IMG/VR virus record: IMGVR_UViG_3300032007_000028
Origin: a virus
Lineage: Duplodnaviria > Caudoviricetes
Length of the DNA stretch: 64,000 nt
Direction: 5' to 3' (one strand)
The translations under genes and the position numbers were made by a program. Position 1 is the first letter of the stretch. Each line of letters begins with the position of its first letter. Shown here one piece after another: positions 20,805 to 42,796 of the stretch. Under the pieces are notes generated by a model. The model was not told where the DNA came from, did no database searches, and was given only the letters and a program-made list of their open reading frames with translations.

Positions 20805-23519
20805 TCAGCCTTCTATCTCGACGACTTCTTCTTTTTCGTCTTCAACGTGTTTTTCGTCTTCAGCATGTTCTTCGCCGTGTGCGCCGTCTGCTTGCTCTAC
20901 GCCTTCTTCGTGGCCCTTTGCGACGTCTTCCGCCGCTTTGGAATCAACTACGTCGACGGCTTTGCTGAGCTGACCCACATGCTTGTATTCCTCAGAACGA
21001 ATGTCATCTACGATTGCGAGAAGTTTAGCTTTGTCCTCTTCGCTGATGCTTCCACAGAAGTTTATGGCGTCCGTCAGACCATCATAGTTGTCTATTGCGT
21101 CGATTTCGTCCTTGACGTTGTCGCCAATCTGATTCTTGATGCTGGTCTTGGCGGCATCGTCTTCGATTCCCTCACCCATCATCGAGTGATTGAAAGCGGC
21201 CATATTCTTCTCGACATCGCCAGCATTCTTATTCACGTGACCGACTTGTTTGGATTTTCTGTCGTAGATGCTTTCGCGAACTACCGCGACGTCTTTGCCG
21301 TCTTCACCGTCTTTGACTTCGAACCAATATCTGTTGCCTTTGTATCTGACGTAACCACGTTGATTTACACCTGAAGTAGACGCGAGGAATCTGAATCCAC
21401 GAGGAAGTTTCTCGTCGTCAGCAAACGGCTTTATCTGACCGTCTTGAGTCAGTCTCGGCTTGAGTATCGCCTTTATTTCGTTCTCTTCGGATTCGTTGAT
21501 GCAACGGTCTTCGCCCAACTGAAGAGGACCGTCGCTCATGTGACGTTCTTCCTTCAAAGATTCTTGAAGTAATTCGTCCCAATGAGAAATGATATAATTA
21601 TACTCGTCATCACTAATCACTTTTTCTGAATTCAAACTTCTTAATTGATTTACTGCGAACTCAACGTCGCTTGTTTCGTCAACCTCTTCCCAATCAATTT
21701 GATTATTCAAAATGTCTTTGCATCTAACGACATCAATCTTATCTTCCTTCAAAGATTCGTCGAGACTGTCGCATTCTGCGCCCAACAGTTTCTTTAAACC
21801 TTTGTAGATGGTGAATGTATCCACGTATCTTGCGGGCATTCCATATAAGTCGTAGCTTGTCCAACTCTCAGCCTCTTTTTTGGCGGAATCCAAAATTTCC
21901 TGACGCTGTTCTTCTGACAATCTCTCCGGGTCGCCATACTCTTCGTCATCTTTCCAAACGATATTTGCGAACTTGTCTTCTATTAACTTGTACGTATCTT
22001 TGAACTGAACGCCTAAGCCTAACGGGTCTTCATCTCCGTAAATCCACCAGAATAAGTCTTCGAAAGACAATTCTCTGGCTTCGACTAGAGACCGATTCTC
22101 TTCCTTCAAAGATTCTTTTATCCTGCATTTGCGCTTGTGGTCTTTGCCCTTCTTCTCGTCGTCTTTCTTAAGAGACTCACACGTTTCCTTGGAAATGAAT
22201 GCAACCTCGCTCTTGTGCAACGAATGACCTCTACCAGATGCGATGTCGCTTCTGTTTTTGGAAACCCACAGATACGACCTATCCATTTCGTCTACGTCAG
22301 TGATGAAGTATTCTTCGCCGTCTTTGGTGATGACCTTCTTACCAACTTCGATGCGCTGATACGGATTGTCGAGATTGCCTTTGAACTTCTCGTAGCCAGC
22401 GGGAGGTTCGTCCAAGCCCTCTTTGATTTTCCCTTCTTCGTCTTCGCATGCACCGAAAACGTCGAGACTGATGTCGTCCCATTCACGACCGTTGATGAGA
22501 TAACTGTTCTTCGCTTTTTCGTAAGCGTCTTCCATCTCTTCCTTCGTATCGTAAGTAAGTATGTCGAAGTCGCCGTTTTCGACGTATCTGACGGCTATTG
22601 CATATGTCTTCTTTTCTTCCTGAGGTTTTTCTTCTTTGGCTTCGACTATCTTATAGCCAGTTTCGCCATTTGATGCGGGACCCCATGCTACCGCCATCTC
22701 TGTGAGACCGTGTTTCTTCTTCAGTTCCTCGAAGCATTGGGCGAGTTCTTCTTTGTCCTCGTCGTTGAGATATTCCTCGTTTCCGTGAAAATCTATGAAG
22801 ATTTGCGCACCTTCGTAATAGCCTGGCTTGATTTCGAACTCGATGTCTTTCAAAATCTCACCACGTAAAGAAGTGTCTTCGTCTTCGCTATAGTAAAGTT
22901 TTGAGCCTTTGTCGTTGATTCTCTTCGTCATGTCGTAGAGGTCGTCTTCGAGTTCTTCGACTTCCCATTCGTCCAACGTACATACGCCGTTCGAATATTC
23001 GTCGAAGTGCTCGTTCATGAACGCCTCAAGATATTCGTCCCAATCGCCATCTTCGTCTTCGTCGTATTCGAATTTGGCCGCATCTTTTGCGGCATCGTAT
23101 ACGTTTTCGTAATCCATGAACACAAGCAAGGGAAGAAAATCGGCACCACCGTCGCCGTAGAAGTTAGACGTACCTTCGTTGAGCTGTTTGGCTTCCACCA
23201 GTTCGTCCTTTTTCTCCTCTTCGACGCTTTCGCACGCACAGCGAACTTTGTCGACGACCCAATCGATTGCGTTGGAGTCGTTCAGGTCTCCATCTGAGAA
23301 TTCGGAGAACAAATCATAGCCACAAAGAGCTTCGTTGATTGTCTCGAATTGCGGGAATTCCGATAAAACGGCCTTCGAATATCCGTGAACGTAGGGATTG
23401 AGAACGTCGTAGTTCTCCATAATCCCAAGACCATCCAGCTCGAAACCTTCGTCAATCAACGATTTACGAGTGTGTTCGAGTTTGGATTTCAATCTTTCGA
23501 ATCTGTCGATTTCTTTCAT
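20805..23519 (-). CDS. Acidic multi-module protein with C-terminal ferritin-like helical bundle (putative internal head polyprotein)
   Basis: Repeated ESLKE linkers; C-terminal DEIDAIDNYD...IRSEEYKHVGQL resembles a ferritin-like ExxH motif. Confidence 0.55.
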   Translation of the reverse strand: MKEIDRFERLKSKLEHTRKSLIDEGFELDGLGIMENYDVLNPYVHGYSKAVLSEFPQFETINEALCGYDLFSEFSDGDLNDSNAIDWVVDKVRCACESVEEEKKDELVEAKQLNEGTSNFYGDGGADFLPLLVFMDYENVYDAAKDAAKFEYDEDEDGDWDEYLEAFMNEHFDEYSNGVCTLDEWEVEELEDDLYDMTKRINDKGSKLYYSEDEDTSLRGEILKDIEFEIKPGYYEGAQIFIDFHGNEEYLNDEDKEELAQCFEELKKKHGLTEMAVAWGPASNGETGYKIVEAKEEKPQEEKKTYAIAVRYVENGDFDILTYDTKEEMEDAYEKAKNSYLINGREWDDISLDVFGACEDEEGKIKEGLDEPPAGYEKFKGNLDNPYQRIEVGKKVITKDGEEYFITDVDEMDRSYLWVSKNRSDIASGRGHSLHKSEVAFISKETCESLKKDDEKKGKDHKRKCRIKESLKEENRSLVEARELSFEDLFWWIYGDEDPLGLGVQFKDTYKLIEDKFANIVWKDDEEYGDPERLSEEQRQEILDSAKKEAESWTSYDLYGMPARYVDTFTIYKGLKKLLGAECDSLDESLKEDKIDVVRCKDILNNQIDWEEVDETSDVEFAVNQLRSLNSEKVISDDEYNYIISHWDELLQESLKEERHMSDGPLQLGEDRCINESEENEIKAILKPRLTQDGQIKPFADDEKLPRGFRFLASTSGVNQRGYVRYKGNRYWFEVKDGEDGKDVAVVRESIYDRKSKQVGHVNKNAGDVEKNMAAFNHSMMGEGIEDDAAKTSIKNQIGDNVKDEIDAIDNYDGLTDAINFCGSISEEDKAKLLAIVDDIRSEEYKHVGQLSKAVDVVDSKAAEDVAKGHEEGVEQADGAHGEEHAEDEKHVEDEKEEVVEIEG

Positions 23520-23559
23520 AAGAATCTCCTTGTTGTGTCTTTTATATTGTTTTATTTCC

Positions 23560-24270
23560 TTAGTCGACTGGATAGAACAGAGAATGATTCGTTCTCAATA
23601 TCTCGCGAAGTTCGGATAGTTCCCTGTCGCCTTCCTGAAGCATCGTCTCACCGTCTTGTTGCCACAGGGCGTTGCTTTGAGTGAATCTCGTTCTGATTCT
23701 GCCCAACGTCTTCTTGACCATCGCAATCGACAATCTCTGAAGAACGTCTATCCAGTATGGGCTTTTGATTTCGCTCACGTCTTCGAACAACGGTATGTAT
23801 TCGATTACGATTTTCGTCGGATAGTTGCCAGATACGTTTATGTACAGTTTCTGACCTTGCTTATCTTCCTTAAACGCCAAGTCCGTGCTGACAGAATTAC
23901 GTATCTGCAACACTGTATTATACGATGCATAGTTCAAAGCGAACTGATTTATGTTATACGTAACGTTGTTCATGCCGTACAAAGCCCACGTCTGTGCGTA
24001 CATCGGGTCTATCGTGCTACCGCTTCCAGACGCGCCACCGCCAATAGGCTCGGTTCTATACACGCTCTTTATGCTTGAACACTTGAAACCTGTCAGGTCG
24101 ATGCAACTAGAAAAAGGAACCTCGATGTATCTCGACTCGTCTATGTATCGCTGAATCTCCTTCAACGACTTCATAACGACCTTCGAAATAATCTCATCGC
24201 TGATTTCCAATTCGAGAACTCCACCAGTGAGTTCCAACTTTATCTCAGAAACGTATTCGCTTAATTCCAT
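23560..24270 (-). CDS. Neck/head-tail adaptor protein (T4 gp13-like)
   Basis: IKLELTGGVLELEI and LGRIRTRF...QDGETMLQEG motifs; start MELSEYV downstream of a late motif. Confidence 0.7.
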   Translation of the reverse strand: MELSEYVSEIKLELTGGVLELEISDEIISKVVMKSLKEIQRYIDESRYIEVPFSSCIDLTGFKCSSIKSVYRTEPIGGGASGSGSTIDPMYAQTWALYGMNNVTYNINQFALNYASYNTVLQIRNSVSTDLAFKEDKQGQKLYINVSGNYPTKIVIEYIPLFEDVSEIKSPYWIDVLQRLSIAMVKKTLGRIRTRFTQSNALWQQDGETMLQEGDRELSELREILRTNHSLFYPVD

Positions 24271-24337
24271 GAAAAACAGTTCGACAACAATTATGTCATC
24301 AAATTTAGCAATTATCGAAAAAGAAAAGCACCTTACG

Positions 24338-25093
24338 GCGCTCCCTTCGGCTTTTTGCAGAAACCTAACTGACATCCTTTGCGAATTTCACGACTGTGGG
24401 TAGAAACTCGTTAAATCCCCTTGCACTCTTTCACCTGCATGGCGATAGGATTACCTTCACGCGTCAATCCTATAAAGAGGTCTGGTCTATCTGGCAGAAC
24501 GATGCTGTCTTGCCGTGCGTGAGACTGCCCGCACGTCGCGATTTGAGTTCTCGCGACAAGAACACTCGCAGAGGTTTAACGTCTTCGTGCCGACGTGTGC
24601 ATCATGCCAGCCGAAGCGGGCGGTGGATGCACTGCTAAGCAGAGGGTTTTACCTCTGTAAGAACAACGATGCGCTATTCAATGCCGATTCCCATTCACGC
24701 ATCAACAACCCACCATAATTATGCAGTCTGTCTGCTTTTCAATCGGAAGGTTCTTCACTGACCCTGCGACTAGGGCAATCGCTATTCAGATTCGAGACAG
24801 CCACGTCTCTTGGGTGAGGGAACATTAAGGGTGTTTTGCATACGCACAACAGTTATAAGTGCGTCGCTAACTCCTGCCCACGCTGTACTGAAAGACTCTT
24901 TTTCTGGTGCCTTGCTGCCATACCTGGTTTGCTCGTGGTCGTGGGTATCCAGTTCCCATGATTCCCGCTCATCGTACAGCCACGTATACGATGAACATCA
25001 GGCTAAGACGACGACGTATCTGTCGACGAATACTCGGTTTAGCGACATGGGCAGGTCGTGTGACATCAAGCTTTCGCAAGATGCAGGGAGCAC
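24338..25093 (-). ncRNA. Large highly structured non-coding RNA (GOLLD/ROOL-like in size and context, or novel)
   Basis: About 750 nt with no credible ORF; nested 5'/3' closing helices and at least 10 local hairpins; terminator-like hairpin and U-tract at the 3' end. Confidence 0.75.
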
Positions 25094-25111
25094 ACTCGTT
25101 TTATCAATTGA

Positions 25112-25453
25112 TTAAAACCAACTGAGGAATAGAGGTTCGAACCCATCACCGAATTCGATTTTAGGTTCACTCCCGTTCTCGCTGACGTAAGTCATGTGAT
25201 ATCCACCATAGTCTTTGGCGAATTCGTCACGTAACTCAACCCAGCTATCATAAGCCTCACGCAACTTAGTCGCGTATTCGGCTTTGACGTCTTCGTATGC
25301 CTTGTAAGCTTTCGCAACTTCTTCGGCACGCTGTTTCTTCTCAGCCTTCTTCTTTTGTTCTGCGGATTCTAATTCCGCCAACTTCTTTTCGTCGGCTTCG
25401 AGTTCTTTGACAGTTTTGTAAGACTTGCCGGTCTTTTCACTCAAATACAACAT
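25112..25453 (-). CDS. Coiled-coil hypothetical protein immediately upstream of the ncRNA
   Basis: Strong SD (AAGGAGG); 113 aa, K/E/A-rich. Confidence 0.7.
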   Translation of the reverse strand: MLYLSEKTGKSYKTVKELEADEKKLAELESAEQKKKAEKKQRAEEVAKAYKAYEDVKAEYATKLREAYDSWVELRDEFAKDYGGYHMTYVSENGSEPKIEFGDGFEPLFLSWF

Positions 25454-25563
25454 AGTAACCCTCCTTTTGGTTTTTCAGAGACGTCGGTCGACGGCTCCCT
25501 ACCCAATCGGCAGGCGTCTTTGTTGTTCAGAGTCACGATACGTCTTTCGCATCGTGTCATTAT

Positions 25564-25593
25564 ATTATACAATCACATCAGGTGACTATACAA
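25564..25593 (-). promoter_or_regulatory. Sigma70-type promoter (TTGTAT-18-TATAAT) for the 113-aa gene and ncRNA
   Basis: Direct match; followed by a hairpin-rich leader of about 100 nt. Confidence 0.55.
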
Positions 25594-25664
25594 TCTAATT
25601 TTTGAGAACGAGTCTTTTATCACTCGCTCATTACTTTAGCACGAGTAATTTTCAATTTTTGAAA

Positions 25665-26300
25665 CTACTCTTCTTCCTCTACTTCGACTTCTTCCTCTTC
25701 GCCGGATTCATCGCTATGATAGTTCTCACGAAGGTCTTCGACAATCACATAGACATCGTTGTAGAATTCTTCAACTGCTTCATCCCAATTGGCATCTTGA
25801 GGAGACTGATACTGCTTCATGATTTCCCACAGGTCTTCGGTGTAGATGAGTGAGTCGTCGATAGCTTGAATGATAGCGTCATGAAGTTCGTCTTCGTCTT
25901 CGACATAGATGTCTTCGATTCTATCGATGACGTTTTCGATGATGTCGACGAGTTCGAACGAGGCGCTGTAATCGAAATGTTTGCCGATTGCGGAACGGAT
26001 TTCGCTTGCGCTGAGTTCTTCTTTGAGTTGTTCTTTCATGTTATTTACCTCTTGAGTATATTCTATCATGCTCCTGGCTTCAGTCAAGTACTTTTTCGCA
26101 GATTCAAGATTTTCGAAGAATCTTTCCGATTTGCCTGTACCTTTGTCGCAGTCATAGCCGTCGAGAACGGATACACCAGCCTCAGCATCTTCGCAGATAA
26201 CGGATTTGATGTTGTCGTTGTTATCACCATAATATTCGACAATGCGCTTCTTATCCGCGGTTTCGAACAGATGTCTTTGTTTTGAAGTTTCAATAATCAT
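25665..26300 (-). CDS. Two-module protein with C-terminal Ocr (T7 gp0.3)-like acidic DNA mimic
   Basis: DEDELHDAIIQAIDDSLIYTEDLWEIM resembles Ocr [28 protein letters not shown]; very acidic tail. Confidence 0.55.
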   Translation of the reverse strand: MIIETSKQRHLFETADKKRIVEYYGDNNDNIKSVICEDAEAGVSVLDGYDCDKGTGKSERFFENLESAKKYLTEARSMIEYTQEVNNMKEQLKEELSASEIRSAIGKHFDYSASFELVDIIENVIDRIEDIYVEDEDELHDAIIQAIDDSLIYTEDLWEIMKQYQSPQDANWDEAVEEFYNDVYVIVEDLRENYHSDESGEEEEVEVEEEE

Positions 26301-26318
26301 ATTTCGAGATACCTCTTT

Positions 26319-28061
26319 TTAATTTAGCGTGGGGTTTCCTTCTATTGTGAGAAAATCGTCGATTGGCATATGCGACAGTTTTTCATTGCCGACACTGCAG
26401 TATTCTTGCTTTTTGCCAACTATAGGCCCATCTTTGACGACTGTCACATAGTCGATTGACGGAGCGTTTTCGGCAACCGTTTTCCAAATTGAATCGAACC
26501 AATTAACTTTGCTGTCGACGGGTATTCTGAAGTATATCTCGCCATTGTCGCCACCGTACGCATATTTTATATTAGACGTACGCACGCGACAGAACTCTTC
26601 GTTCGTCTTTCTAGAAAGTTCTTCGAACAGGGACTTCGCTTCTTCGTTGGTCTTGTCTTCTAGGCTTTCGAATTTGCTTACGAGAGAAGCGATATCTTCC
26701 CTTTTCGTATTCTCTCTGAACCATTCGAGAAAGCCAGAATGTCTGTTCAACAACTCATTCAGATTCTTCTCATAAGACGCTTCTTTGAACATCTCTATAT
26801 AAGGATGGACGGAACCACATTCCAGAAGCTTGCCATCGTTGCGCAACATATATGGGGTATTCGATTTCAACATAGGTTCTTTCTTATTCTCGGTCAACGA
26901 CTTGAATCTCTCGTCCTCGTCATTGCCGTACAGACCGAACGAGAATGCGACGCCATTGGGCAACAAAGTGTATCCATCGCACGACTTCGCCAACGCATCG
27001 AATATAACGTTCGATGTGGTATATGTTTCGGAATATCTGTCGTCTTTTTCGTCTTTCTTATCGTGACTCGTAGTCTTCAGCTTTTTGCCCTTTGAGAACG
27101 AGAACGTGATGAAACTGTCCTGCGCAAGGGCGTTGGCAAGTTCCTCTGACGTCGTTTCATTCGGTCTTTCGATGATATACGTATCTGGATTTGCATCGCC
27201 AAGATAATAACCGGATACGCGAAGGCCATTGTTCTCCACATACGACACAGCGTTGTCATACGCGTCTTTGTTGTCGTCTCTTTTCTTTTCGTTGTGCTCG
27301 TCGACGTTCGTGGCAAGAATGACGTACTCTTCGCCAAATTTGACGTCTATGTGTTTGGACAATTCGTAGAAAAAACGTTTTGCGTTGTCGATGACCATCT
27401 GCTCTGAAAGACGCTCCAACGAAAGCTGACGAGACTTCAGCTTCTTCGATAAATCCTTCAATTCGTCCAAATAACCGAGATTGCGCATCTCCTTGAACAC
27501 GAGATTGCCGATGCCGAATTCTCCGTCTTTGGCGATTGATTCCTTACGCAAATCGTATAGGTCTTCGATGAAGTCGTAAATCTCTTCGTAAAGGTCATCT
27601 TCTTGCGTCGACTGCTTCGATTCATATAAAGACAACGGTATATTTCGTTCTTTGACGAAGTCGATGATTTTTTTCTTCATATCGTCTGGGATGACACCCA
27701 ATGACTTAAACTCGGAATTGTGTATGATGTCGTAAGCGGACCAATTCTTGCTTTCGTTTTTCTTAAGTCTGCGGTCTGAAATGAAGAAACCAGTAGGCTT
27801 TGCGAGATTCGTGCCTTTCAACTCTCCCAAAGAAAACGACAAAAAATCATCTATGTCTTTATACTTTTCGACTTGGGAAGTACCATGAATGAAAATCGGA
27901 TACACGTCTTTCAGAGAAAAGTCTTTGTCTTCGAAGTCTTCCGCATCATACGCGGGGTCGAGTATGATTACTGGACGACGCTTCGCAGGCGGGTCGTATT
28001 TATGGTCGTTCGGTACCTTGCAAATCAATAATTCGAAGGGCTTTAATACATAGTCTTTCAT
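26319..28061 (-). CDS. Multi-module protein: PemK/MazF-like N-domain, NTase C-terminal helical fragment and two unknown modules
   Basis: AKRRPVIIL; DLYDLRKESIAKDGEFGIGNLVFKEMRNLGYLD; linkers LYES, LSEQ, LTEN. Confidence 0.55.
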   Translation of the reverse strand: MKDYVLKPFELLICKVPNDHKYDPPAKRRPVIILDPAYDAEDFEDKDFSLKDVYPIFIHGTSQVEKYKDIDDFLSFSLGELKGTNLAKPTGFFISDRRLKKNESKNWSAYDIIHNSEFKSLGVIPDDMKKKIIDFVKERNIPLSLYESKQSTQEDDLYEEIYDFIEDLYDLRKESIAKDGEFGIGNLVFKEMRNLGYLDELKDLSKKLKSRQLSLERLSEQMVIDNAKRFFYELSKHIDVKFGEEYVILATNVDEHNEKKRDDNKDAYDNAVSYVENNGLRVSGYYLGDANPDTYIIERPNETTSEELANALAQDSFITFSFSKGKKLKTTSHDKKDEKDDRYSETYTTSNVIFDALAKSCDGYTLLPNGVAFSFGLYGNDEDERFKSLTENKKEPMLKSNTPYMLRNDGKLLECGSVHPYIEMFKEASYEKNLNELLNRHSGFLEWFRENTKREDIASLVSKFESLEDKTNEEAKSLFEELSRKTNEEFCRVRTSNIKYAYGGDNGEIYFRIPVDSKVNWFDSIWKTVAENAPSIDYVTVVKDGPIVGKKQEYCSVGNEKLSHMPIDDFLTIEGNPTLN

Positions 28062-28342: not shown

Positions 28343-28371
28343 ATTATATAAGCACGTTTCTTGCGTGTCAA
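28343..28371 (-). promoter_or_regulatory. Consensus sigma70 promoter TTGACA-17-TATAAT
   Basis: Perfect consensus; the -35 box overlaps the TGA stop of the upstream ORF. Confidence 0.8.
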
Positions 28372-31322
28372 GCGACTTCGATGATTTTTGGCGTATAGTC
28401 GTCAATCCACCCGTCTTGGACATAGTGATGTTGATATTTGCCCAAGGCCTTACCTAACGGGCTTGACTTATATTTGTCGTCGCTTCTCGTCGTCACCACA
28501 CCGAAGTCATAGACATACTTACCTTCGTAACCGTCTTCGTTGATGTCTGAACCGTAAGTATCTGCTACTTTATCGAGAGGTGCATAGATATAGTATATCA
28601 CGTGTCCACCGTAGTCGTCAAGATAACTGTCCAATTCCCATTTACCTCTGAGCACACCGCTTTGCGCGAGCTGTGCATAGTAACCACGCTCCCAGGCCGC
28701 ATCGACCATCTCACGATGAATCAACTCATCTGCATCACACACGAAGAATCTCTTCAGTTTTCTGTCATACAATATACGTAAAGCTTTTTCTGATGAGCGT
28801 AGCATATTCGCCACTTCGTAAGGACTTTCCGTCGTGAATATCTCTTTATCATCATCCACGTACTCTTCTTTCAAAGACTCATGGGCGTCTCTGACATACT
28901 TTATACCGTTTTTCTCACAATACTGTATGGCATATTCGTTGTTTGTGTGCACAGTAAGTCTTACGCAACCAGCGAAAGCACGCATGCCAATCGAAGTTAC
29001 ACTATTTGGAATTGTAATAGATGTTAAGGAGTCGCAACGAGAGAAAGCATCATCACCGATTGAAGTTACACTATTAGGTATCGTAATCGACGTTAAGGAT
29101 TTGCAACCAGCGAAAGCACCTATGCCAATTTCCGTTACACTATCAGAAATCGTTATGGAAGTTAAGGATTCACAGTCATAAAAAGCGGCCCCGCCAATTT
29201 CCGTTACACTTTTTGGAATTGTTATTGACGTTAAGGAGGCACACCCAAAAAAAGCACTTTCGCCAATTCTCGTTATGCCACTAGGTATCATAATTGACTT
29301 TAAGGATGTGCAACCAGCGAAAACGGCTCTGCCAATTTCCGTTACACTGTCTGATACTGTAATTGACTCTAAAGACCTACAGGCAAAGAAAGCATCTTCG
29401 CCAATCGAAGTGACACTATTTGGAATCGTGATTGACTTTAAGGCCCCGCAGTCACGAAAAGCATTTTTGCCAATTCTCGTTATGTCGTCTGGTATTGCTA
29501 CTGACTTTAAGTAGGCACACCCAAAAAAAGCAAGGTCGCCGATTTTCGTGACACTGTTAGGAATCGTTACCGACTTTAATGATGTTGATGCTTTGACAAT
29601 CTCGGTACCATCGTCGCTTAAAGCAAGTCCATTTACGACTTTGGGTCTTTTTATAACCAACTTTGCATTAATTAAGTCAATCGGCAACGAGTTGAGTTCA
29701 GAATAATCTCGATAGTCTTTTTGATTGAACAACTCGAAATTTGTCTCTTTCAAGTATTCATTATCGTTCAAGAATTCATTGACATTAATCGTTCTTGGAT
29801 ATAACGCCAAGGCGTATTCTCCGTAAAACGTAGACGGGTCTAGAAAGTAGAAGAATCTCACCCCCTTTTTCGTATAATTGTTCCAGTGCTTCTTAGCATC
29901 TTTCGCGCTTGGATTATATTCAGGATGCCCTGCATGACCATATCTTCCAGTAGTGCACCAACCCGTGTTTATACCCAAATCCATCGAGGCTACGTAATCC
30001 AAAGGCTCGTATACTAAGTATCCATTCTTTTCGCCCAAAAAGTTATATTTGCCACGAACCTCGCGGGTCTTGCCCGACATCACGCGTTTTTTCTGAGCGT
30101 CTTTTTTGTCATCGTATAACGACAACAGCAAATCGTCCAATTGCTTTTTGTCGTACTTTAAGTATTGACCATAATCGACGGAAAGACCTTTGTTGAGCAG
30201 ACGTTGTTTGGCCTTCTCGAAGTTTTTCGCAGTATCTTCGCCGAACTTGGCGATGAAATCCGTCTTCGCAGATTCGTCCAATGCGCTTTCCCTAATCAAA
30301 GACTCGTCCAAAGGGTGCTCTGTCGACGCAAGAGCGTACTCTATTCTGTCGCGAAGTTCGAAGTACTTGTCTTCCCATTTTGAAAGTTCGTCGTCCAACT
30401 TCTCTCTGTCTATGTCTGGGATATCCGTCTGAACGGGCTTCTTAACCCAACCGTTTTCGATTGAATAGATGCCATTGCTTACGCCTTGGGGCTCGTCCAT
30501 TTCCACGTAAATCTCCGCAGGAATGCCTTTTATCTTTATTTCGTAGTTCTTGTTGAAGATAGAACGATACGCGGAATAAAGCAGAGGATACAACTCGTCT
30601 GGACACTCTAGACCTTCGCTGTCCGCTATTAAGTGAATGTCCAAGTCGCTGTCTTTCGTATAGTTGTAGTTGACGTTTGAGCCGATGAGAACGATGTCCT
30701 TGAGATTGAACTTGATTCCGTCCGCCTTCAACTCATCGACGAACGCATTTGCGATTTCAACAACTTTGTCTTTTACGTCTTGTCTCAATTCGTCGCCGTC
30801 GAATAACTTCTGATTCAGTTCGTCATGCTTCTCGATGTCCTCTTCGATATCGACGGCCAAAGCGTCGTGCAGTTTTGTGAAGTTGCCGACTCTGTTATTC
30901 AATTCCTTCTTTATATACGCCTTGTCCTCTTTCGAGATATCCGCAACGTATTCACCGTAATCGATGAAATCCTGTATCGACAAATCGTATGTGAATTTAC
31001 CTTCCGCTTTGCCGAATCTAAAAATGGTGGGCTTCTTCAATTTATATCTCTTTAGTTGTTCGGCGTCATCGAAGATTACCGTATCAGGCTCGGCTTCATA
31101 ACGCTTTACGTTCGTCGTGCCTACAGCGAAAAGAGGGAAGAACTGAGTTAAGTCCTCCTCGTCTTTCTCTTCTTCGTCGACAAACGTCTCCACAAGAATG
31201 ACCGGTCTGCCGAATTTTGCTTCTTCTGGGTCATTTAGATGCTCGTTTGGGACTTGTATTTTCCACATTTGCCATTCCTTGGGGAACGGCTTCTCTTTCA
31301 ATATGTTCTCTTCGTCAGGCAT
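28368..31322 (-). CDS. Multi-module protein: PemK-like domain, nucleotidyltransferase catalytic part, 'WCT' module, BspA-type LRR, unknown module
   Basis: FGRPVILV; GSNVNYNYTKDSDLDIH (GS...DxD); ASMDLGINTGWCTT; about ten 23-aa SITIPNSVTSIG-x-AF-x-C repeats. Confidence 0.7.
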   Translation of the reverse strand: MPDEENILKEKPFPKEWQMWKIQVPNEHLNDPEEAKFGRPVILVETFVDEEEKDEEDLTQFFPLFAVGTTNVKRYEAEPDTVIFDDAEQLKRYKLKKPTIFRFGKAEGKFTYDLSIQDFIDYGEYVADISKEDKAYIKKELNNRVGNFTKLHDALAVDIEEDIEKHDELNQKLFDGDELRQDVKDKVVEIANAFVDELKADGIKFNLKDIVLIGSNVNYNYTKDSDLDIHLIADSEGLECPDELYPLLYSAYRSIFNKNYEIKIKGIPAEIYVEMDEPQGVSNGIYSIENGWVKKPVQTDIPDIDREKLDDELSKWEDKYFELRDRIEYALASTEHPLDESLIRESALDESAKTDFIAKFGEDTAKNFEKAKQRLLNKGLSVDYGQYLKYDKKQLDDLLLSLYDDKKDAQKKRVMSGKTREVRGKYNFLGEKNGYLVYEPLDYVASMDLGINTGWCTTGRYGHAGHPEYNPSAKDAKKHWNNYTKKGVRFFYFLDPSTFYGEYALALYPRTINVNEFLNDNEYLKETNFELFNQKDYRDYSELNSLPIDLINAKLVIKRPKVVNGLALSDDGTEIVKASTSLKSVTIPNSVTKIGDLAFFGCAYLKSVAIPDDITRIGKNAFRDCGALKSITIPNSVTSIGEDAFFACRSLESITVSDSVTEIGRAVFAGCTSLKSIMIPSGITRIGESAFFGCASLTSITIPKSVTEIGGAAFYDCESLTSITISDSVTEIGIGAFAGCKSLTSITIPNSVTSIGDDAFSRCDSLTSITIPNSVTSIGMRAFAGCVRLTVHTNNEYAIQYCEKNGIKYVRDAHESLKEEYVDDDKEIFTTESPYEVANMLRSSEKALRILYDRKLKRFFVCDADELIHREMVDAAWERGYYAQLAQSGVLRGKWELDSYLDDYGGHVIYYIYAPLDKVADTYGSDINEDGYEGKYVYDFGVVTTRSDDKYKSSPLGKALGKYQHHYVQDGWIDDYTPKIIEVA
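28920..29590 (-). repeat. BspA/LRR_5 leucine-rich repeat array (69-bp period)
   Basis: Tandem L-x-SITIP-x-SVT-x-IG-x-x-AF-x-x-C units. Confidence 0.9.
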
Positions 31323-31536
31323 ATATCCAACTCCCGTCCTTCAAGGAATCTCTTGCGTAATCGCGAGCCTTTATCATTTTCGCGTAACTGAGAAGGAACG
31401 CATCGTCCGAATTGGGTTCACTTTTGGACTCGAACATCTTCTTTGCTTCCGACTCCAACTGAGCGATTCTTTCGTCAAGTTCGCTCTCGCTCAACGCGTC
31501 GATTTGCTTTCTCAATTCCTTTTTGCTCATTTTCAT
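31315..31536 (-). CDS. Internal in-frame small protein (antitoxin-like), probably expressed independently
   Basis: GAAGGTGGAC-ATG start; two sigma70 promoters just upstream inside the large ORF; stop overlaps the PemK-like ORF start. Confidence 0.55.
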   Translation of the reverse strand: MKMSKKELRKQIDALSESELDERIAQLESEAKKMFESKSEPNSDDAFLLSYAKMIKARDYARDSLKDGSWIYA

Positions 31537-34500
31537 GTCCACCTTCTCGCTTATTATAGCACGCATACACGAAGAATGCATCAACGATTTCGCACAGCGA
31601 TGCTTTTCGAGAAGATTATAAGACGCGTTATGCGCTTTGTCAAGAGACAGAGATTCGTACATCTGCTTAAGATTGTCTTTCGTGTCCTCACTCAAATCGA
31701 ACGCATTGAAAACGTCGTTGACGGTTACTGAACCGCGTTCGAGGTCTGTGAATATTCTTTGCGTGATTTCGTTCAATATATCTGGAGAATAGCGAGAGAA
31801 TTCCAGCAACGCGTCTGGGAAGTCTTTGTGATAAGACCAAAGTTCTTCGCCATCGTCTTCGTTCGCTATGAGATAGAACCCAGAATCGAAATTCGACTTA
31901 TCGAGAGCGGCTGCTTTGCCCTTCTCCCAGTTTTTCAGTTCGTCCCAATTCGATATCTGAGGAACATCGCCTGCCCACTCCTCTTCATAGTCATAACCGG
32001 TCAACTTCTTATACTGTTCTGCAGACATCTTACCGTCGGTGACCGCTTCCCATTCGAGATATTCATCGGGTATGGACCAGTCAAGGTCCTTGACGAAGTC
32101 GTCGACGTTGTTATACAGAATAAGCGTGCCTTCTTTATAATTATAAGCACTGTCGTTTAGATAATGTCTGATGAAGTTGAAGTCGACTTTGCCTTCCGCT
32201 ATGAGAATTTGTATCTCGTGCTCAGGATTTAATACTGCGTACCATGCTTCGCGCTCTTTGCCGTCAATCAAGCCCGCGACCTGCTTCACGAAAGGCGCAT
32301 CGGGAATATACGTAATAGCAATATCGGCGTCGTTGAAAATCTCGTAATGTTTCCTGTCTGGATATATGGCTAGTGCGTACTTTCTTCCGTTCTTTCTGTT
32401 GATGAAGAAATAGAAGAGTATACCGCTTTCGTGATAACCGTCCCAATGCTCTCTTCCGTTTTTGCCGTTTTCCCAACGCTTAGAGCCAGAGATGCACCAC
32501 TTCGTTCCTTTACCGTACTTTACGGAAGCCTCATAATTCGTTATTTCGTAAACGAGCCAATCGTCGTTCTCGTAGACAAGTTCTGCGCCTTCGTCCTCTT
32601 TACGGGCGACTTCTGCCTTCTCGTCGTCCTTTTTCTGCAACGATGAGACAAGCGATGCGAATTCGCTGAACGGCTTCTTCATCCATGAGTATATGTCACG
32701 CTGTTCGCCCTTCAATGAGTTCTTGTACTTATTGAACACGTCGACCGCTTCCTTCGCGTAAACACCGGAAGCCCAATCGCTGTATTTCATCGATTTATAT
32801 CCGTCAGATATCCACTTCAAAAATCTTTCGGTATCAGCTTTCGCTTCCGTTAGCGACTCGTTCATATCGATATGAAAATCGTTCTTCAATATATCCTTTA
32901 TCTCATCTTCATCGTTTTTTAAGAACCAGAGATAGTCGAGCCAGTTTACACCTGCTTCTGCCGCGTCTCTTATATTTGCTTCTGTTATGTCGTCATAAAA
33001 ATCGAAGTACTCGTTGAAATCATAACCCATTGCGTCTGGTATTTGAGGGTAACCATCGGGAAGAGTTGGGACATTTGGTATACCAGCCACTTTGCAGTCC
33101 TCTTGATTGAAAATCATTTCAGCGTGATTGCCAATAACGCCTACTGCGTGACGCATGTACTTGGAATCGTCTCTCGGTATGAAGAACAGAAAATACTCTA
33201 TTCCCAAATTGTCTCTATAAGAATCCCAGTCATCTTCATCGGTTATACACCAAGTGGTGTTGCGACCATATTTTCTGCTTGCTTCGTACGACGTTATCTT
33301 ATATACGTACCAAACATCGCTCTCCGCGACTCTCTCTGCACCTGAATTCTCTTTGTCTATGAGTTCTTTTTTCTCTTCGCTCTTTCGTACGTAGTTAGTC
33401 AAAAAGTAGAAGAACTCGGACGGGTCTCTCTTCATCCAGTAGTAATAATCGGTCTCTTTTCCGGAGTTGTCTTTTCTATATGATTGAAACAGCGCAAGAC
33501 AATCATTTGCACTGCGCATATATTCAGAAACATCTATGTCCGAATCTGACCATCCACGCCCGACTTTCTGATATGCATCGTCTAGCCATTTTTTGAAGTT
33601 CTCGTCATCCTGTTTCGATTCCGTTAGCGATTCTCTGAATGTACTCAACGTTTTCTCTACGAATCTATTGTTCACATCATCGTACTGATAGAGTTTAATG
33701 CCCTCCAATTTACTGAGCAGTTCTTTATAGGAAACCTCGTTTCTGTCCATGTAATGCAAAAGCTTATGAAGCAATTCCCTGTCTTTCCAGTCTTTCGATT
33801 TTATGAACCAAATGTTCTTGTATGAGTTGTCTTTCAAACCATTTTCGTATGCATCGCTCAAATGATGTACACTAAGTTCCTTGGTGTCTATGATACCTTC
33901 GAAATTGTTGTCTTTCGCAATCTTTACTATGTTATTTTTTAGTTTTTTATTTTGATATTTCTGCTTGTTGGGCACTCCACTTGAACCTTCGTTTACGTTG
34001 TCGCTGTTCGTCGGCTCTTTATTTGTAATTGCCTTTATCTGATTTGCATCGAATGCAATATACGACATGTCTCCACTTATCATGTCGCTGGCCTCGAAAT
34101 TGTTCTGATAATATATACCGTCATAGCCTCTGTTCTTCAACAATCTTCTTAGAAGTCTTGATTCGTCAGAGTTGTATTTATCCGCAAACGAATCGCACTC
34201 TGCGGCCTCCGCATCAGACGTAATATCGGTTTCTTTGCCTGTGCCTAGAGACCTTCCATTAAAGAAAAGCACTTTGTTTATTTCCTTTAATTCATCTTCT
34301 GTCATGTCGAAATCGAATATGCTTCCATATTTATCGAACGACTGACTCCACCACCAAAATAGAACAGAGTACGGGCCTGTTTCGCCAAAATCGTACATAT
34401 ATGCAGGATTCTTTATATTCAAATAATAAGAATAAACTTTGCCTGCATCAAATGGAAATTCATTTGCAATAGCTTGAGCCTGCGCTTTCGTCCCAAAATG

Positions 34501-37500
34501 AAAGCCTATATCGCCACGCGCGAATTTATCGAAGTTCTTATCGGTGCCGTGATACACAACAAGCAATTTTCCGTTGTTATCGCGAATACTGCTGTCTTTG
34601 AAAAACGCAATTTGCTCCTTACTTAAGACATTACCTTCGTTGTCTGTTTCTTGTAAATCTTCGTTTATATTGTCACTGCTTGTAGGATTTATATTGTCGA
34701 CGCTCTTTATAGCGTTCGGTAAAAACACCTCAATCTCAGTACGACGATTCTCTATGTCTTCATCACTGAGCACTATTATACCATCGTAACCGGACATCTC
34801 TGCCAACTCATCGAATCTCTTGTGTTCTCCCATTATCTTCTCATAATACATCTCAACGAGATACCAGTCTCCAAACGGATGATACATGCTGTCGTAGAGA
34901 GCAGAATCGAATGCTCCGGTTGTATCGACTAGAATAGTAGATATGACGTCGGCATCGAGCGACGAATCGTTGTGATGAAGAATCACTGGGTTCTCTAGAT
35001 TCAAGTACACGACTTTGTATTTGTCGCCATGCGAAAATATGTTTTCGGAACTCGTCGAAAAATACATGCCATCTCCAAACAGACCTATCTTCGCGAGGCC
35101 TCTGTTGAACGTATCGAACTCATACTTAGTCGAATGATAGCAAACGACAAGTTCTCCTTTTTTGTTACGAACTTTGCTGTTCTTGAAGAACTCAATCTGC
35201 TCTTTACTTAAAGGATTGCCTTCATTATCCGTTTCTTGCAAATCTTCTGTTATTTTTTCGGTATCCCAAAGTTTGTGTAAGGTATCCAAAATGAATTTAT
35301 CCTGCTCTTCGTTGAAATGCCATCTAGTGTCTTTGTTCTTTTCGTACCACTCAAAAGGCGTGTTGTTGAATTCCTCACTCATCGCACACCAATCACAGCA
35401 CATCTCTTCTAATGCGGATTCGGGCATCTTTGAGCAATCTAAACAACCATGAGGAGTTGGATTATCTCTAGAGAATCCTTCGATATCTTTAGGGTCTACC
35501 CAATGTTCACAGTGATGTTCGTTATTGATAACATGCTTAAAAGTAGCATCGTCAATCATCGCTTGTTCTTCTTTTGTGATATCCTCTTTATTTTTGGACA
35601 TTAAAGAATAACCAGCATATAACTCGTTGAACTTGTCGCTGTCATGGTTTGGATAACTTCTACCTATCTTCTTGGCATATTTATTTACTCTATCGATATG
35701 GGCATGAGTTCTCTCATCAAATTTCTTCTGATAATCTTCTTTATTGCCCTTTTTTACTACCTTCTCATTTAGATGAAAATAGTTTTTAATCATCCTAACT
35801 AATTTATAACCAGTCCAATTACCAATATTTTCATCCCAGTGATAATCTTGACAAGCCCCCTCTCTTAAACTAAAAACTTTATAAAAATCGGGTTTATTAT
35901 TTTTCCATATTTCAACTTTACAATAATCTTCAATATCTAAGTATTTGTCAATAATTTCTTCTAATTTTTTATATTGAATTTCATTGGGTTCATTAAATAT
36001 TCTAACACAAGTATCTTCTTCGGCGTGAGTGTTAGAAAATTCAGGATACCCCATTTTTTCTAATCCCTCATCTTCCCCATGATATTCATCGAGAATTATT
36101 AGTGAACCGTCTTCTTTTACATACCCAGCCGTACCGAGTTGGAATTCGTTTGTTTCTATATATTCTTGTAAGCGTTTGAAATAATGAACTTGCTTCAATC
36201 TCTTTTCAGCTTCTGCTTTGGTATCGTAAGTACCTAGGTTCTTTCCTTTTTCAGACTGAACCTGCCATTTACTGCCTTTTTTGACTATTTTTTCTGTCAA
36301 CGACTCATCCATTTCGCGCTCGAACTGATAAACGCGAACTGGCTCAGGCAATACTGAATACAAATCAGTTCTGTCGAAATCGTTGCCTAAGTCCGCAATC
36401 TTGAAGTCGCCGTAATCGTATACGTTTATCTCGAGGTTATAATCTATCACGTCATCATCAATTTCGTTCTTCGTATAGAAAAGATATCTGTCGATATAAT
36501 ACGCCGAAGCCGTAAGTTTCATATCGACTGCCTGGTCTTCGAGGTCCATATGAATGTAATTCGAACCATCACCAACCACCCACATGCCAGAATCCTTCAG
36601 GTGAAGCAGCCTCAATATACCATAATAGTTACGTTGAGCGTACGCAACCAAATAGTTCTTGCACTCATATACCGAATCGAAATACACGGCATCATAGTCT
36701 TCCGAGAACAAACAATGCGTGCTTTCGTTTATCTTATTGTAAGAATTATAGAACTTCGTACCGTCGTTCGTGGTATAGCCCCAATTTATCTCTTTATATT
36801 CTTTCTTCAGAGAGTCTATCAAAGCGGTCGCTATGCCTTTGCGACGTTCCGATTCCTTGACTTCAATCATCTGTATATACGCGGTATCCTCTTCGTCGTC
36901 AGCAACGGAGTACTGAAGATAGCCGAGAATGTTCTCTCGTATGATTCTGTCGTGTTCGTCCATCCAGTCATCGCCAACGTAGGCAATCTTCATGTAGTCG
37001 GATTGACCTGAATAACCACCAGTGCACTCTGTCCAGATGTTGTACTCACGACCTGCTTTGTCCTTCTTCGATTCTTTGCTCGATTCTTCAATATTCTTGC
37101 CGTTCGCATCTTCGAAAACCCTACCAAACGCGAACGTTCTTTTTAATTTTTCTATAATCTCGTCTGTCGTGTTCTCGTCGAAACGATACGACACGTAATC
37201 CGATTTGTCGGTCAGAAAACAATAGACGGCAGATTTATATTTCTGCACTTCGTCCAAATACTCTTCGATTACCTCGTATTGAGCGTCCGTCGGCTTCTTA
37301 AGCGCAACCAGCTTCGCACGAGGTTCTACGTACGTTCTTCCTTCGTTGAGCGTTATGATTCCCAAATCAGACTCGACGTAGTCCATGATGCGTCTATCGT
37401 CGTCAAGTTCGTATATTTCGTAATCGACGTCTTCGTCGTCTGGATACTCATCTCTCAAATCCTGCGCCAACGAATCGAATATGAGATGGAAGAACGTGAA

Positions 37501-37665
37501 ATGCGTCGCGTCTCCGTCTAGATTCACGGACGTCAGGTCGTAGACGTCGCCATTCGGCAACACTATCGATGGGCCAACTCCCAATCTTTCTGGACAGTTC
37601 AAAGACTGCGCGTATTCCTCTACGTCATCCAATGTAAACGACAAAAAACTCTTGACATCAACCAT
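31315..37665 (-). CDS. Giant polyvalent protein: GNAT, HD-like (DUF5662-type), two ADP-ribosyltransferase-like, HNH-like, two 'YGxxTxWCI' modules
   Basis: IEVKESERRKGIATAL (GNAT); HDSDK...HHCEHW...EMCCDW; YHST/YHGT...YLN...GYDGI (ART of polyvalent proteins); VHHL...N...HKLLH; likely ATG at 37665 just after the late motif. Confidence 0.75.
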   Translation of the reverse strand: MVDVKSFLSFTLDDVEEYAQSLNCPERLGVGPSIVLPNGDVYDLTSVNLDGDATHFTFFHLIFDSLAQDLRDEYPDDEDVDYEIYELDDDRRIMDYVESDLGIITLNEGRTYVEPRAKLVALKKPTDAQYEVIEEYLDEVQKYKSAVYCFLTDKSDYVSYRFDENTTDEIIEKLKRTFAFGRVFEDANGKNIEESSKESKKDKAGREYNIWTECTGGYSGQSDYMKIAYVGDDWMDEHDRIIRENILGYLQYSVADDEEDTAYIQMIEVKESERRKGIATALIDSLKKEYKEINWGYTTNDGTKFYNSYNKINESTHCLFSEDYDAVYFDSVYECKNYLVAYAQRNYYGILRLLHLKDSGMWVVGDGSNYIHMDLEDQAVDMKLTASAYYIDRYLFYTKNEIDDDVIDYNLEINVYDYGDFKIADLGNDFDRTDLYSVLPEPVRVYQFEREMDESLTEKIVKKGSKWQVQSEKGKNLGTYDTKAEAEKRLKQVHYFKRLQEYIETNEFQLGTAGYVKEDGSLIILDEYHGEDEGLEKMGYPEFSNTHAEEDTCVRIFNEPNEIQYKKLEEIIDKYLDIEDYCKVEIWKNNKPDFYKVFSLREGACQDYHWDENIGNWTGYKLVRMIKNYFHLNEKVVKKGNKEDYQKKFDERTHAHIDRVNKYAKKIGRSYPNHDSDKFNELYAGYSLMSKNKEDITKEEQAMIDDATFKHVINNEHHCEHWVDPKDIEGFSRDNPTPHGCLDCSKMPESALEEMCCDWCAMSEEFNNTPFEWYEKNKDTRWHFNEEQDKFILDTLHKLWDTEKITEDLQETDNEGNPLSKEQIEFFKNSKVRNKKGELVVCYHSTKYEFDTFNRGLAKIGLFGDGMYFSTSSENIFSHGDKYKVVYLNLENPVILHHNDSSLDADVISTILVDTTGAFDSALYDSMYHPFGDWYLVEMYYEKIMGEHKRFDELAEMSGYDGIIVLSDEDIENRRTEIEVFLPNAIKSVDNINPTSSDNINEDLQETDNEGNVLSKEQIAFFKDSSIRDNNGKLLVVYHGTDKNFDKFARGDIGFHFGTKAQAQAIANEFPFDAGKVYSYYLNIKNPAYMYDFGETGPYSVLFWWWSQSFDKYGSIFDFDMTEDELKEINKVLFFNGRSLGTGKETDITSDAEAAECDSFADKYNSDESRLLRRLLKNRGYDGIYYQNNFEASDMISGDMSYIAFDANQIKAITNKEPTNSDNVNEGSSGVPNKQKYQNKKLKNNIVKIAKDNNFEGIIDTKELSVHHLSDAYENGLKDNSYKNIWFIKSKDWKDRELLHKLLHYMDRNEVSYKELLSKLEGIKLYQYDDVNNRFVEKTLSTFRESLTESKQDDENFKKWLDDAYQKVGRGWSDSDIDVSEYMRSANDCLALFQSYRKDNSGKETDYYYWMKRDPSEFFYFLTNYVRKSEEKKELIDKENSGAERVAESDVWYVYKITSYEASRKYGRNTTWCITDEDDWDSYRDNLGIEYFLFFIPRDDSKYMRHAVGVIGNHAEMIFNQEDCKVAGIPNVPTLPDGYPQIPDAMGYDFNEYFDFYDDITEANIRDAAEAGVNWLDYLWFLKNDEDEIKDILKNDFHIDMNESLTEAKADTERFLKWISDGYKSMKYSDWASGVYAKEAVDVFNKYKNSLKGEQRDIYSWMKKPFSEFASLVSSLQKKDDEKAEVARKEDEGAELVYENDDWLVYEITNYEASVKYGKGTKWCISGSKRWENGKNGREHWDGYHESGILFYFFINRKNGRKYALAIYPDRKHYEIFNDADIAITYIPDAPFVKQVAGLIDGKEREAWYAVLNPEHEIQILIAEGKVDFNFIRHYLNDSAYNYKEGTLILYNNVDDFVKDLDWSIPDEYLEWEAVTDGKMSAEQYKKLTGYDYEEEWAGDVPQISNWDELKNWEKGKAAALDKSNFDSGFYLIANEDDGEELWSYHKDFPDALLEFSRYSPDILNEITQRIFTDLERGSVTVNDVFNAFDLSEDTKDNLKQMYESLSLDKAHNASYNLLEKHRCAKSLMHSSCMRAIISEKVDMKMSKKELRKQIDALSESELDERIAQLESEAKKMFESKSEPNSDDAFLLSYAKMIKARDYARDSLKDGSWIYA
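31615..31643 (-). promoter_or_regulatory. Intragenic consensus sigma70 promoter TTGACA-17-TATAAT
   Basis: Perfect consensus inside the 2122-aa ORF; a second extended -10 (TGCTATAAT) lies at 31553-31561. Confidence 0.75.
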
Positions 37666-37696
37666 AATCAATGAATTTAGCAAAGAAGCGCGCTTC

Positions 37697-42270: not shown

Positions 42271-42465
42271 ATGAAGAGATACGAAGTCTACATCTACAAA
42301 GGATTCCACTGCTGGTTACGCAGTGAGACGGACGACCTTCAAACCGCGCTCAACAATGCAGTTGAGATTGAAAAAAGCTCAAACGAAGACTTCGAGGGTA
42401 CGGCTATCTATGACAATAAGTCCGAACGCTGGTTCAATCGTCACGAGCGTGGCACTGCGAGGTAA
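42271..42465 (+). CDS. Hypothetical protein
   Basis: SD AAGGAG; promoter upstream. Confidence 0.7.
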   Translation: MKRYEVYIYKGFHCWLRSETDDLQTALNNAVEIEKSSNEDFEGTAIYDNKSERWFNRHERGTAR

Positions 42466-42473
42466 GTAAGAAC

Positions 42474-42743
42474 ATGAACACATACAAAGTATCGCTGTGG
42501 TGCGGGAGAGGATACTATCTCAACGAACCAGTCATCGTCGATGCCGAAGACGATGAGGAAGCATTGGTCAAAGCGAGCATCGCAGACAGAAACTGCTACA
42601 AGGTCTGTACGAACGGCCTGCTTGACTTCATGAACGACGAACTCGAAAACGACGAGAGATACATCTATCTAGATAGAAGTTGCTACGATGCGTATAACTG
42701 CTATCTGCTAATCGAAAACGCGAGAGTCGAGAAACTGTCTTAA
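42474..42743 (+). CDS. Hypothetical protein
   Basis: Coupled to the previous gene; followed by a terminator. Confidence 0.7.
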   Translation: MNTYKVSLWCGRGYYLNEPVIVDAEDDEEALVKASIADRNCYKVCTNGLLDFMNDELENDERYIYLDRSCYDAYNCYLLIENARVEKLS

Positions 42744-42746
42744 AAC

Positions 42747-42780
42747 AAAAGGGAGATGCTACTCTCCCTTTTTATTTATT
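42747..42780. terminator. Bidirectional intrinsic terminator
   Basis: AAAAGGGAGA-TGCTAC-TCTCCCTTTT between convergent genes. Confidence 0.75.
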
Positions 42781-42796
42781 TACTTATCGTTTTCGA

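Follow-up and report, generated by a model that had tools for sequence, protein, structure and literature searches.

A candidate new class of large structured phage RNA at the head-neck gene module of an uncultured bovine-gut myophage clade

To our knowledge, very few bacterial or phage RNAs of more than 500 nt with a conserved structure have been described, and these are mainly GOLLD, ROOL, and OLE. Two of the three were recently shown to form RNA-only cages, and the RNA-only assemblies of ROOL and GOLLD are thought to bind or enclose other macromolecules. The pRNA of phi29, a molecule of ~170 nt from small podophages, is functionally linked to virion morphogenesis. ROOL (Rumen-Originating, Ornate, Large) was first found in sequence data from cow rumen (Weinberg et al. 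2017; PMC5737381). In GOLLD the 3' region is conserved and the 5' region variable, its expression reportedly rises during phage lysis, and both ROOL and GOLLD form compact or oligomeric RNA-only assemblies (bioRxiv 10.1101/2024.12.08.627333). Kayvirus phage K carries abundant long non-coding RNAs near tRNA genes, which the authors of that study compared with GOLLD and ROOL (PMC9241854). A 2023 survey of structured viral RNAs was restricted to motifs of 29-151 nt.

We analysed a stretch of 64,000 nt (the window) from the viral record IMGVR_UViG_3300032007_000028, in which every long open reading frame (ORF) is on the minus strand. Directly upstream of its neck gene, the window contains a non-coding, conserved, and partly covarying minus-strand RNA gene that ends in a terminator and matches no curated RNA family (Table 1). 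We regard it, with moderate confidence, as a gene devoted to a large, structured, non-coding RNA whose family has not been described before, carried by a clade of uncultured bovine-gut or rumen myophages. An earlier note made from the letters alone had proposed a large minus-strand RNA at this place, and strain variants, promoter, terminator, and gene orientation have since borne this out. The 5' limit of the RNA is uncertain and lies either at a processing site near 25090-25100 or at the start of a ~1.24-kb transcript near 25555; the 3' limit is either the terminator or ~24375-24420, where contigs from RNA libraries end. Giant ORFs lie upstream (28368-37683, minus strand) in the head-proximal module beside the RNA unit. 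Among their products are a polyvalent protein of 2122 aa, which has ART-PolyVal, GNAT, and DUF5662 domains, and a protein of 984 aa that carries leucine-rich repeats of the BspA type.

In being phage-encoded, longer than 500 nt, present in RNA libraries, and endowed with covarying structure, the window RNA is of the same kind as ROOL and GOLLD, a likeness that does not imply homology. Among the large structured RNAs associated with phages, it is thus a candidate for a new class, analogous to those two. With ROOL it shares an origin in cattle gut or rumen data, encoding by phages, a length of several hundred nucleotides, many hairpins, and presence in RNA libraries. As with ROOL, no protein family always accompanies the RNA, and a second, AT-rich type of RNA found at the same locus in relatives (type 2, described below, as opposed to type 1 of the window) adjoins a tRNA island in one phage. 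Unlike ROOL, the window RNA did not match the ROOL model of Rfam at any of the thresholds tried, it belongs to the virion structural module, where the neck gene follows it directly, and the RNAs of its clade are far more variable in length (0.6-2.8 kb, both types counted). Also, the frequent tRNA neighbourhood of ROOL and GOLLD loci is missing, as the window has no tRNA genes. GOLLD resembles it as a large phage RNA in which one part is conserved and other domains vary, and the RNA of most relatives stands behind a motif that also precedes structural genes. It differs from GOLLD in having no match to the Rfam model, in having a central conserved part with two variable flanks, and in that no embedded tRNA was found. 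Likened here by description only, the long non-coding RNAs of Kayvirus phage K come from large Firmicutes myophages, are abundantly transcribed there, and are said to lie near tRNA genes, whereas the window RNA lies between head and neck genes. Like the pRNA of phi29 it is a phage-encoded structured RNA, with a link to morphogenesis that is one of gene position alone; it is, however, 4-5 times larger, belongs to a T4-like myophage, and has an equivalent in one relative that is 93 kb from the morphogenesis genes.

Table 1. Positions of the RNA unit, its parts, and its neighbours (numbering is that of the window unless a contig is named)
Feature	Position	Strand	Basis
Candidate large non-coding RNA, ~0.78 kb	24315..25100	-	no ORF; homologues L029, L004, L030; RNA-library contigs
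Conserved core, ~260 nt, near-invariant blocks between variable hairpins	24663..24918	-	alignments A2-A6
Hairpin H1, 6-bp stem closing conserved loop UUAUAACNGU	24842..24864	-	covariation
Hairpin H5, GCAG-ACAGA-CUGC	24723..24735	-	covariation
Hairpin H6, GAUGCG/CGCAUC, loop with conserved AAU.GGAA.C.GC	24668..24703	-	alignment A5
5'-domain hairpin UCAUCGUA.../...UACGAUGA, loop ACGUGGCUG	24969..24994	-	sequence; strain variants
Intrinsic terminator, 9-pair stem, GUAA loop, U-run; hairpin 24345-24324	24314..24345	-	sequence
TGCTAAATT, promoter-type motif of neck gene, marks end of RNA unit	24302..24310	-	motif count
Sigma-70-type promoter-like site, TGTATAAT (extended -10), upstream of 113-aa gene	25559..25588	-	sequence
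113-aa K/E-rich helical protein gene, strong Shine-Dalgarno, directly upstream of RNA	25112..25453	-	L029 homologue
Neck protein gene (T4 gp13 family), complete, downstream neighbour	23560..24270	-	full-length matches SP-15, LIS04, GXN1
Type-2 stretch examples	L042:587-3000; L047:3334-6100		

The ORF-free interval between the 113-aa ORF and the neck gene comprises 841 bases (24271-25111). The claim that it holds no credible ORF stood up to inspection, since the longest start-to-stop reading on the gene strand is 39 aa and every frame is interrupted. Every frame contains all three stop codons and reassignment of any single stop never opens one, and the same recoding check on the homologous stretches of two relatives opened no frame either. 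An antisense frame of 101 aa was without a family match and is not preserved in the relative L029, and translated frames of the ORF-free stretch gave no match to protein families. The GC content is ~0.52 in this stretch versus ~0.44 in its surroundings. Indels between homologues measure 58, 19, and 3 nt, and the first two, neither of which is divisible by three, argue for a non-coding stretch. The variation among strains points the same way: by our count, variants of the non-coding part in RNA-library contigs were distributed 9/9/6 by position modulo 3 and hence had no three-nucleotide periodicity, whereas 9 of 11 variants in the adjacent 113-aa ORF, also by our count, were at third codon positions. 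Whether read in the standard code or recoded, the stretch did not behave as a protein-coding gene. Elsewhere in the window, 42272-42797 is another ~525 nt without a minus-strand ORF of at least 55 aa, with small plus-strand ORFs of 64 and 89 aa. The relatives L043-L045, which form one branch of the clade (neck protein 59% identical), are translated correctly only with TGA as tryptophan, and have no ORF-free gap upstream of the neck gene.

The RNA stretch ends in an intrinsic terminator whose hairpin is real and, as the earlier note had it, overlaps the strand proposed to close the RNA at its 3' end; the equivalent place in L004 and L029 is also occupied by a terminator, though of another sequence. 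The motif TGCTAAATT, which follows the terminator, occurs 11 times in the window where 0.56 copies would be expected, always on the minus strand and upstream of genes (at 2156, 15303, 15523, 17513, 24302, 37674, 43537, 44235, 50782, 55863, and 61811), and it is present upstream of the neck gene in all relatives. Judged from this distribution, TGCTAAATT is a candidate phage-specific, probably late, promoter element of the clade. An TGCTAAATT of its own marks the 5' start of the RNA stretch in 8 of 10 related loci, and the RNA of L004 has one at its start. No copy is found upstream of the RNA in the window and in L029, and in the window the sigma-70-type site upstream of the 113-aa gene is the sole candidate promoter of the unit. 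Within the RNA stretch we found no internal terminator and just one weak promoter-like site. Lacking a promoter motif of its own in the window, the RNA there probably forms the 3' portion of a transcript of ~1.24 kb that includes the 113-aa ORF.

The stretch turned up in bovine-gut data from 13 studies, with six metatranscriptome runs among them. Contigs of four RNA runs from four studies, placed on 22500-27500, cover 24375-25604. One RNA-library contig of 1202 nt matches 24403-25604 with zero differences and ends near the predicted promoter and terminator, and others match 24396-25389 and 24419-25087. Three contigs bridge the 113-aa ORF and the RNA, which is consistent with the co-transcription of the two that had been proposed, and in runs X12 and X13 contigs cover the RNA without most of the ORF. 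In all four studies the 3' ends of the contigs fall at 24375-24419, a weak hint that the RNA may end upstream of the terminator. The flanks at 22500-24336 and 26341-27500 were not covered in the four RNA runs, which is not evidence of relative abundance. Strand, level, ends, and the existence of a single molecule cannot be read from assembled contigs, and the runs had been selected because they contain the stretch; what the contigs establish is a presence in RNA pools that agrees with the predicted unit, and nothing beyond that.

The 113-aa ORF is itself a real gene, as indicated by its Shine-Dalgarno sequence, its 24 relatives, and its codon-like variation. Its product has a 71% identical homologue in L029 and belongs to a family of 24 proteins; it had no convincing match in Pfam or PHROG, and no relatives in IMG/VR. 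A gene of this family immediately precedes the RNA stretch in the window, L029, L047, and L048, so that a co-occurrence of the two is seen at these loci. In L004 an unrelated ORF takes its place, the protein was not found in the RNA-bearing records L004 (86% complete) and L027 (91% complete), and in L049-L051 the 113-aa gene is followed by 235 nt and then by a protein gene and the portal gene, with no adjacent RNA. A necessary partner protein is thus not supported, and the 113-aa protein is a frequent neighbour of the RNA and not an obligate partner.

These observations also bear on the possibility that the RNA is a cis element, namely a long structured 3' UTR without a trans function, which would serve to stabilise or regulate the mRNA of the 113-aa gene or to insulate the unit from the late neck operon. 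Such a role would fit the position of the RNA right after the 113-aa ORF in the window and L029, with no promoter motif between the two, as well as the contigs that bridge ORF and RNA. It would not explain why the RNA of L004 follows an unrelated ORF behind its own TGCTAAATT in a record without the 113-aa gene, a near-invariant core of 260 nt together with covarying hairpins exceeds what a stabiliser needs, and the contigs of X12 and X13 largely leave out the ORF. On balance we consider a 3' UTR unlikely.

Contigs for the comparison with relatives were fetched via the neck protein, whose clade numbers 2081 relatives at E < 1e-30; PF26809 was found on the neck proteins of all relatives, and the carriers of the homologous stretch are those nearest to the window. 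The homologous stretch was found in three independent related phage contigs. These are L029 (neck protein 76% identical to that of the window; stretch matched by nhmmer with E = 3.5e-35), L004 (78% identical; the same phage as L013 and L014), and L030, which like L031 has a 79% identical neck protein, is close to L004, and has its stretch cut at the 5' end. The conserved core consists of identical or nearly identical blocks of 12-35 nt, among them GCAGCAAGGCAC, AAAGAGUCUUUCAGUACAGCGUG, GCAAAACACCCU, CUCACCC, UGAAG.ACCUUC, and AAUUA.GGUGGGU, which alternate with sequence-divergent hairpins and indels and are collinear in all type-1 members. Blocks of 20-35 nt are identical among phages whose neck proteins are just 76-79% identical. 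Outside the core, the window RNA has a 5' domain of ~170 nt and a 3' domain of ~330 nt that cannot be aligned among homologues, and L004 has 430 additional GC-rich bases on the 5' side. Covariance models of the core, which was built as two (R1 and R2), had matches confined to the window, L029, L004, and L030 (E = 1e-24 to 1e-34). Two core blocks were also nearly matched in L005, where they are inside a coding ORF and were put down to chance.

In three hairpins of the core, pairing, position, and loop are preserved although the stem sequences differ. The stem of hairpin H1 reads ACGCAC/GUGCGU in the window, GCAUCG/CGAUGC in L029, and CGUUCC/GGAACG in L004, so that both sides are changed at 5 of 6 pairs; strain variants preserve its pairing via G.U, and slid registers of the alignment collapse. 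H5 is GCAG/CUGC in the window and L029 versus GCGG/CCGC in L004 and L030. For H6, the stems read from alignment A5 are GAUGCG/CGCAUC in the window, UCGCGAA/UUCGCGA in L029, and UCGGGA/UCCCGA in L004, with a formal covariation count that is weakened by misregistered gaps. The score of H1 was reached by 0 of 500 shuffles and the joint covariation of H5 and H6 by 3 of 500, figures that are indicative only, as the Infernal-realigned alignment was fitted to the structure and contains some spurious weak rows. With three independent homologues, the comparative evidence is confined to these hairpins, a minor part of the fold. Single-sequence minimum free energy (MFE) folds of the three homologues had no long-range architecture in common, and RNAalifold on a MAFFT alignment paired mainly invariant columns.

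Substitutions among strains indicate which strand is the RNA. In the 5'-domain hairpin, variants at 24974 and 24975 (in the UCAUCGUA hairpin) are paired as G.U on the minus strand only. Five stem substitutions were seen in H1, the UCAUCGUA hairpin, and the CAGAGG hairpin together; on the minus strand each of the five preserves or creates a pair, and four are G.U there and would be A.C mismatches on the plus strand. We conclude from this that the minus strand is the RNA strand. By comparison, fold energy says little alone: it is ~3 SD better than that of dinucleotide shuffles, the comparison named in the earlier note, but equally so on the antisense strand (z = -3.1 for minus, -3.3 for plus).

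The detailed architecture sketched in the earlier note fared unevenly. Its local hairpins are all present in the letters, with comparative support for GAUGCG/CGCAUC only, and the repeated loop words ACGUGGCUGU and GAAUAGCG (each occurring twice) are there as described. Covariation among homologues, which it had named as a check, is found in H1, H5, and H6. Three nested helices had been proposed to join the ends, and these do appear in the letters and in the MFE fold of the exact 756-nt piece. We found nothing to make them meaningful: the first 90 and last 110 nt are no more complementary to each other than shuffled sequences are (z = 0.18), the helices disappear from the MFE fold once the terminator is included, the outermost one competes with the terminator stem, and no counterpart was seen in L029 or L004. 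The internal domain closed by CCUGCCCAUG/CGUGGGCAGG is predicted by folding, and its 3' strand falls within an invariant block, whereas relatives do not conserve the 5' strand.

At the same place in more distant phages (neck protein 57-65% identical to that of the window), 0.85-2.8 kb of AT-rich, ORF-free sequence lies upstream of the neck gene (L016, L017, L032-L038, L042, L047, and L048). These type-2 stretches are homologous to one another, with 95%-identical blocks between variable inserts and with modules that vary in order and number between phages; one 85-nt module folds as a conserved unit with a few compensatory pairs. Each type-2 stretch begins with TGCTAAATT, and most also have a sigma-70-type site and a terminal terminator. 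In L047 and L048 the stretch comes after a homologue of the 113-aa gene (110-113 aa), which makes the locus syntenic with the window. The 161-kb record L027 has no RNA upstream of its neck gene; its type-2 RNA is 93 kb away and adjoins 16 tRNA genes, which argues for a self-contained, trans-acting gene. In IMG/VR, type-2 patterns were found in one contig, L027, and two other patterns matched nothing. We consider the type-2 stretches, which had no Rfam match, a candidate giant modular phage RNA in their own right. A tRNA-like stretch inside the type-2 stretch of L042 (L042:961-1040) has a CAU anticodon-like loop, a T-arm-like hairpin, and a 3' CCA; neither ARAGORN nor the Rfam tRNA model called it a tRNA.

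No match between types 1 and 2 was found by nhmmer with single sequences, by a type-2 profile, or by R1 and R2. A 12-nt motif, AUGU[GU][CU][CU]CUCAC, occurs in both types and nowhere else in 404 kb, but it was picked post hoc and its rough chance-match estimate is ~0.2. A 3' motif seemingly common to L029 and type 2 (GAGUUUCUACCCAC versus GGUUCUACUCCC) resulted from a MAFFT misalignment in L029, and was dropped because it had been aligned onto the neck-gene promoter and leader of that phage. The two types could nevertheless form one ancient, fast-evolving, modular superfamily of giant phage RNAs (0.6-2.8 kb), each in its own late unit in the virion module, that would form an RNA-only or RNA-protein particle, might be packaged or co-delivered with polyvalent cargo proteins, and would perform a novel infection step. 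We regard this far-reaching proposal as doubtful.

The modular make-up of type 2 raises the question of whether the window RNA is one molecule at all, or a string of independent small RNAs or hairpin modules (processed sRNAs, protein-binding sites, or decoys) that are transcribed together. The reordering and varying number of type-2 modules over 0.85-2.8 kb would suit such a string, as would the unconserved 5' and 3' domains and repeated loop words of the window RNA. It is at odds with the collinear core blocks of all type-1 members and with a stretch that has no internal terminator and a single weak internal promoter-like site, and contigs span the whole stretch, though this is no proof of a single molecule. 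A string of modules thus seems quite improbable to us.

Searches against known families returned little for this locus. With Rfam 15 at the gathering score, the sole match in the 64-kb window was a group I intron elsewhere (48466-48791). Under permissive filters and E <= 10, the region 24100-25300 gave only chance snoRNA-like matches, and at E <= 1 nine related loci (L004, L016, L017, L027, L029, L032, L042, L047, and L048) gave tRNAs only. Neither the GOLLD nor the ROOL model was matched in the window, in 24100-25300, or in the nine related loci, and at E <= 10 under the permissive filters no match to OLE, RNase P, or tmRNA was seen. A blastn search of the region against 50,697 phage records had no match, exact or degenerate core patterns were found in IMG/VR in the L004 contig only and in none of 185,579 species genomes, and our literature search found no published description of the RNA. 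The earlier note had left it open whether this was a divergent member of GOLLD or ROOL or a new class, and the scan, which gave no family match, upholds the latter. A highly divergent GOLLD or ROOL that is missed by the Rfam models would share the bovine gut or rumen phage habitat, the length of several hundred nucleotides, the presence in RNA libraries, and, through the related type-2 RNA of one phage, the place beside a tRNA island. Given that no match came up even at E <= 10 for the region and E <= 1 for the nine related loci, we think this very unlikely.

A ribozyme or mobile RNA element that has escaped recognition, for instance a self-splicing intron without an ORF, is just as hard to reconcile with the locus, and we give it little credence. 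Long invariant single-stranded blocks are typical of catalytic cores, and the window does carry a group I intron elsewhere, but no intron (group I or group II) or ribozyme model matched the region at E <= 10, no spliced joint was seen in the RNA-library contigs, and the stretch ends in a terminator that is followed by a promoter motif. Moreover, the flanking genes are complete and can be aligned over their full length to uninterrupted relatives. The neck protein aligns end to end with those of Bacillus phage SP-15, Listeria phage LIS04, and Streptococcus phage GXN1, in which a protein gene stands directly upstream of the neck gene without a gap, and the stretch is therefore not an intron in a split gene. 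That the stretch is a decayed gene or functionless spacer DNA, for which nothing speaks besides the missing ORF, is hardly credible in view of its identical blocks of 20-35 nt, compensatory stem changes, presence in RNA libraries, and lack of a protein-family match.

The group I intron at 48466-48791 (minus strand; Rfam, 57 bits, E = 8e-12) is an observation in its own right. A 344-aa ORF (47412-48446) follows directly downstream of it, and on its upstream side lies a prohead-protease-like gene (49120-50721) with a weak PF03420 match. The gene that it splits is probably that of the major capsid protein; in Bacillus phage SP-15, too, the capsid CDS is composed of two joined pieces with an endonuclease gene between them.

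Under our preferred reading, that of a dedicated gene for a large structured RNA, the minus-strand RNA would be made as the 3' part of a short unit from the sigma-70-type promoter, with a transcript that passes through the 113-aa gene and ends at the intrinsic terminator before the neck gene's own promoter. The RNA would consist of a conserved multi-hairpin core of ~260 nt, flanked by fast-evolving, hairpin-rich 5' and 3' domains. We infer that it acts in trans during infection and not as a cis-regulatory element of its neighbours, as relatives have the RNA behind a promoter motif of its own or elsewhere in the genome, and as its core is far better conserved than the neighbouring proteins. By analogy only, it may be a stable, compactly folded RNA and assemble into a compact or oligomeric particle, as has been proposed for ROOL and GOLLD.

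Another, unrelated class from the habitat in which ROOL was discovered would be a new subject for structure determination, for which its compact conserved core, clear transcription unit, and presence in RNA pools are assets. Within the clade the RNA changes place: it may lie in the head-neck module, follow a promoter motif of structural genes, or adjoin a tRNA island, and these differences offer natural comparisons. Altogether, such a class would add a second or third independent data point on the purpose of large phage RNAs.
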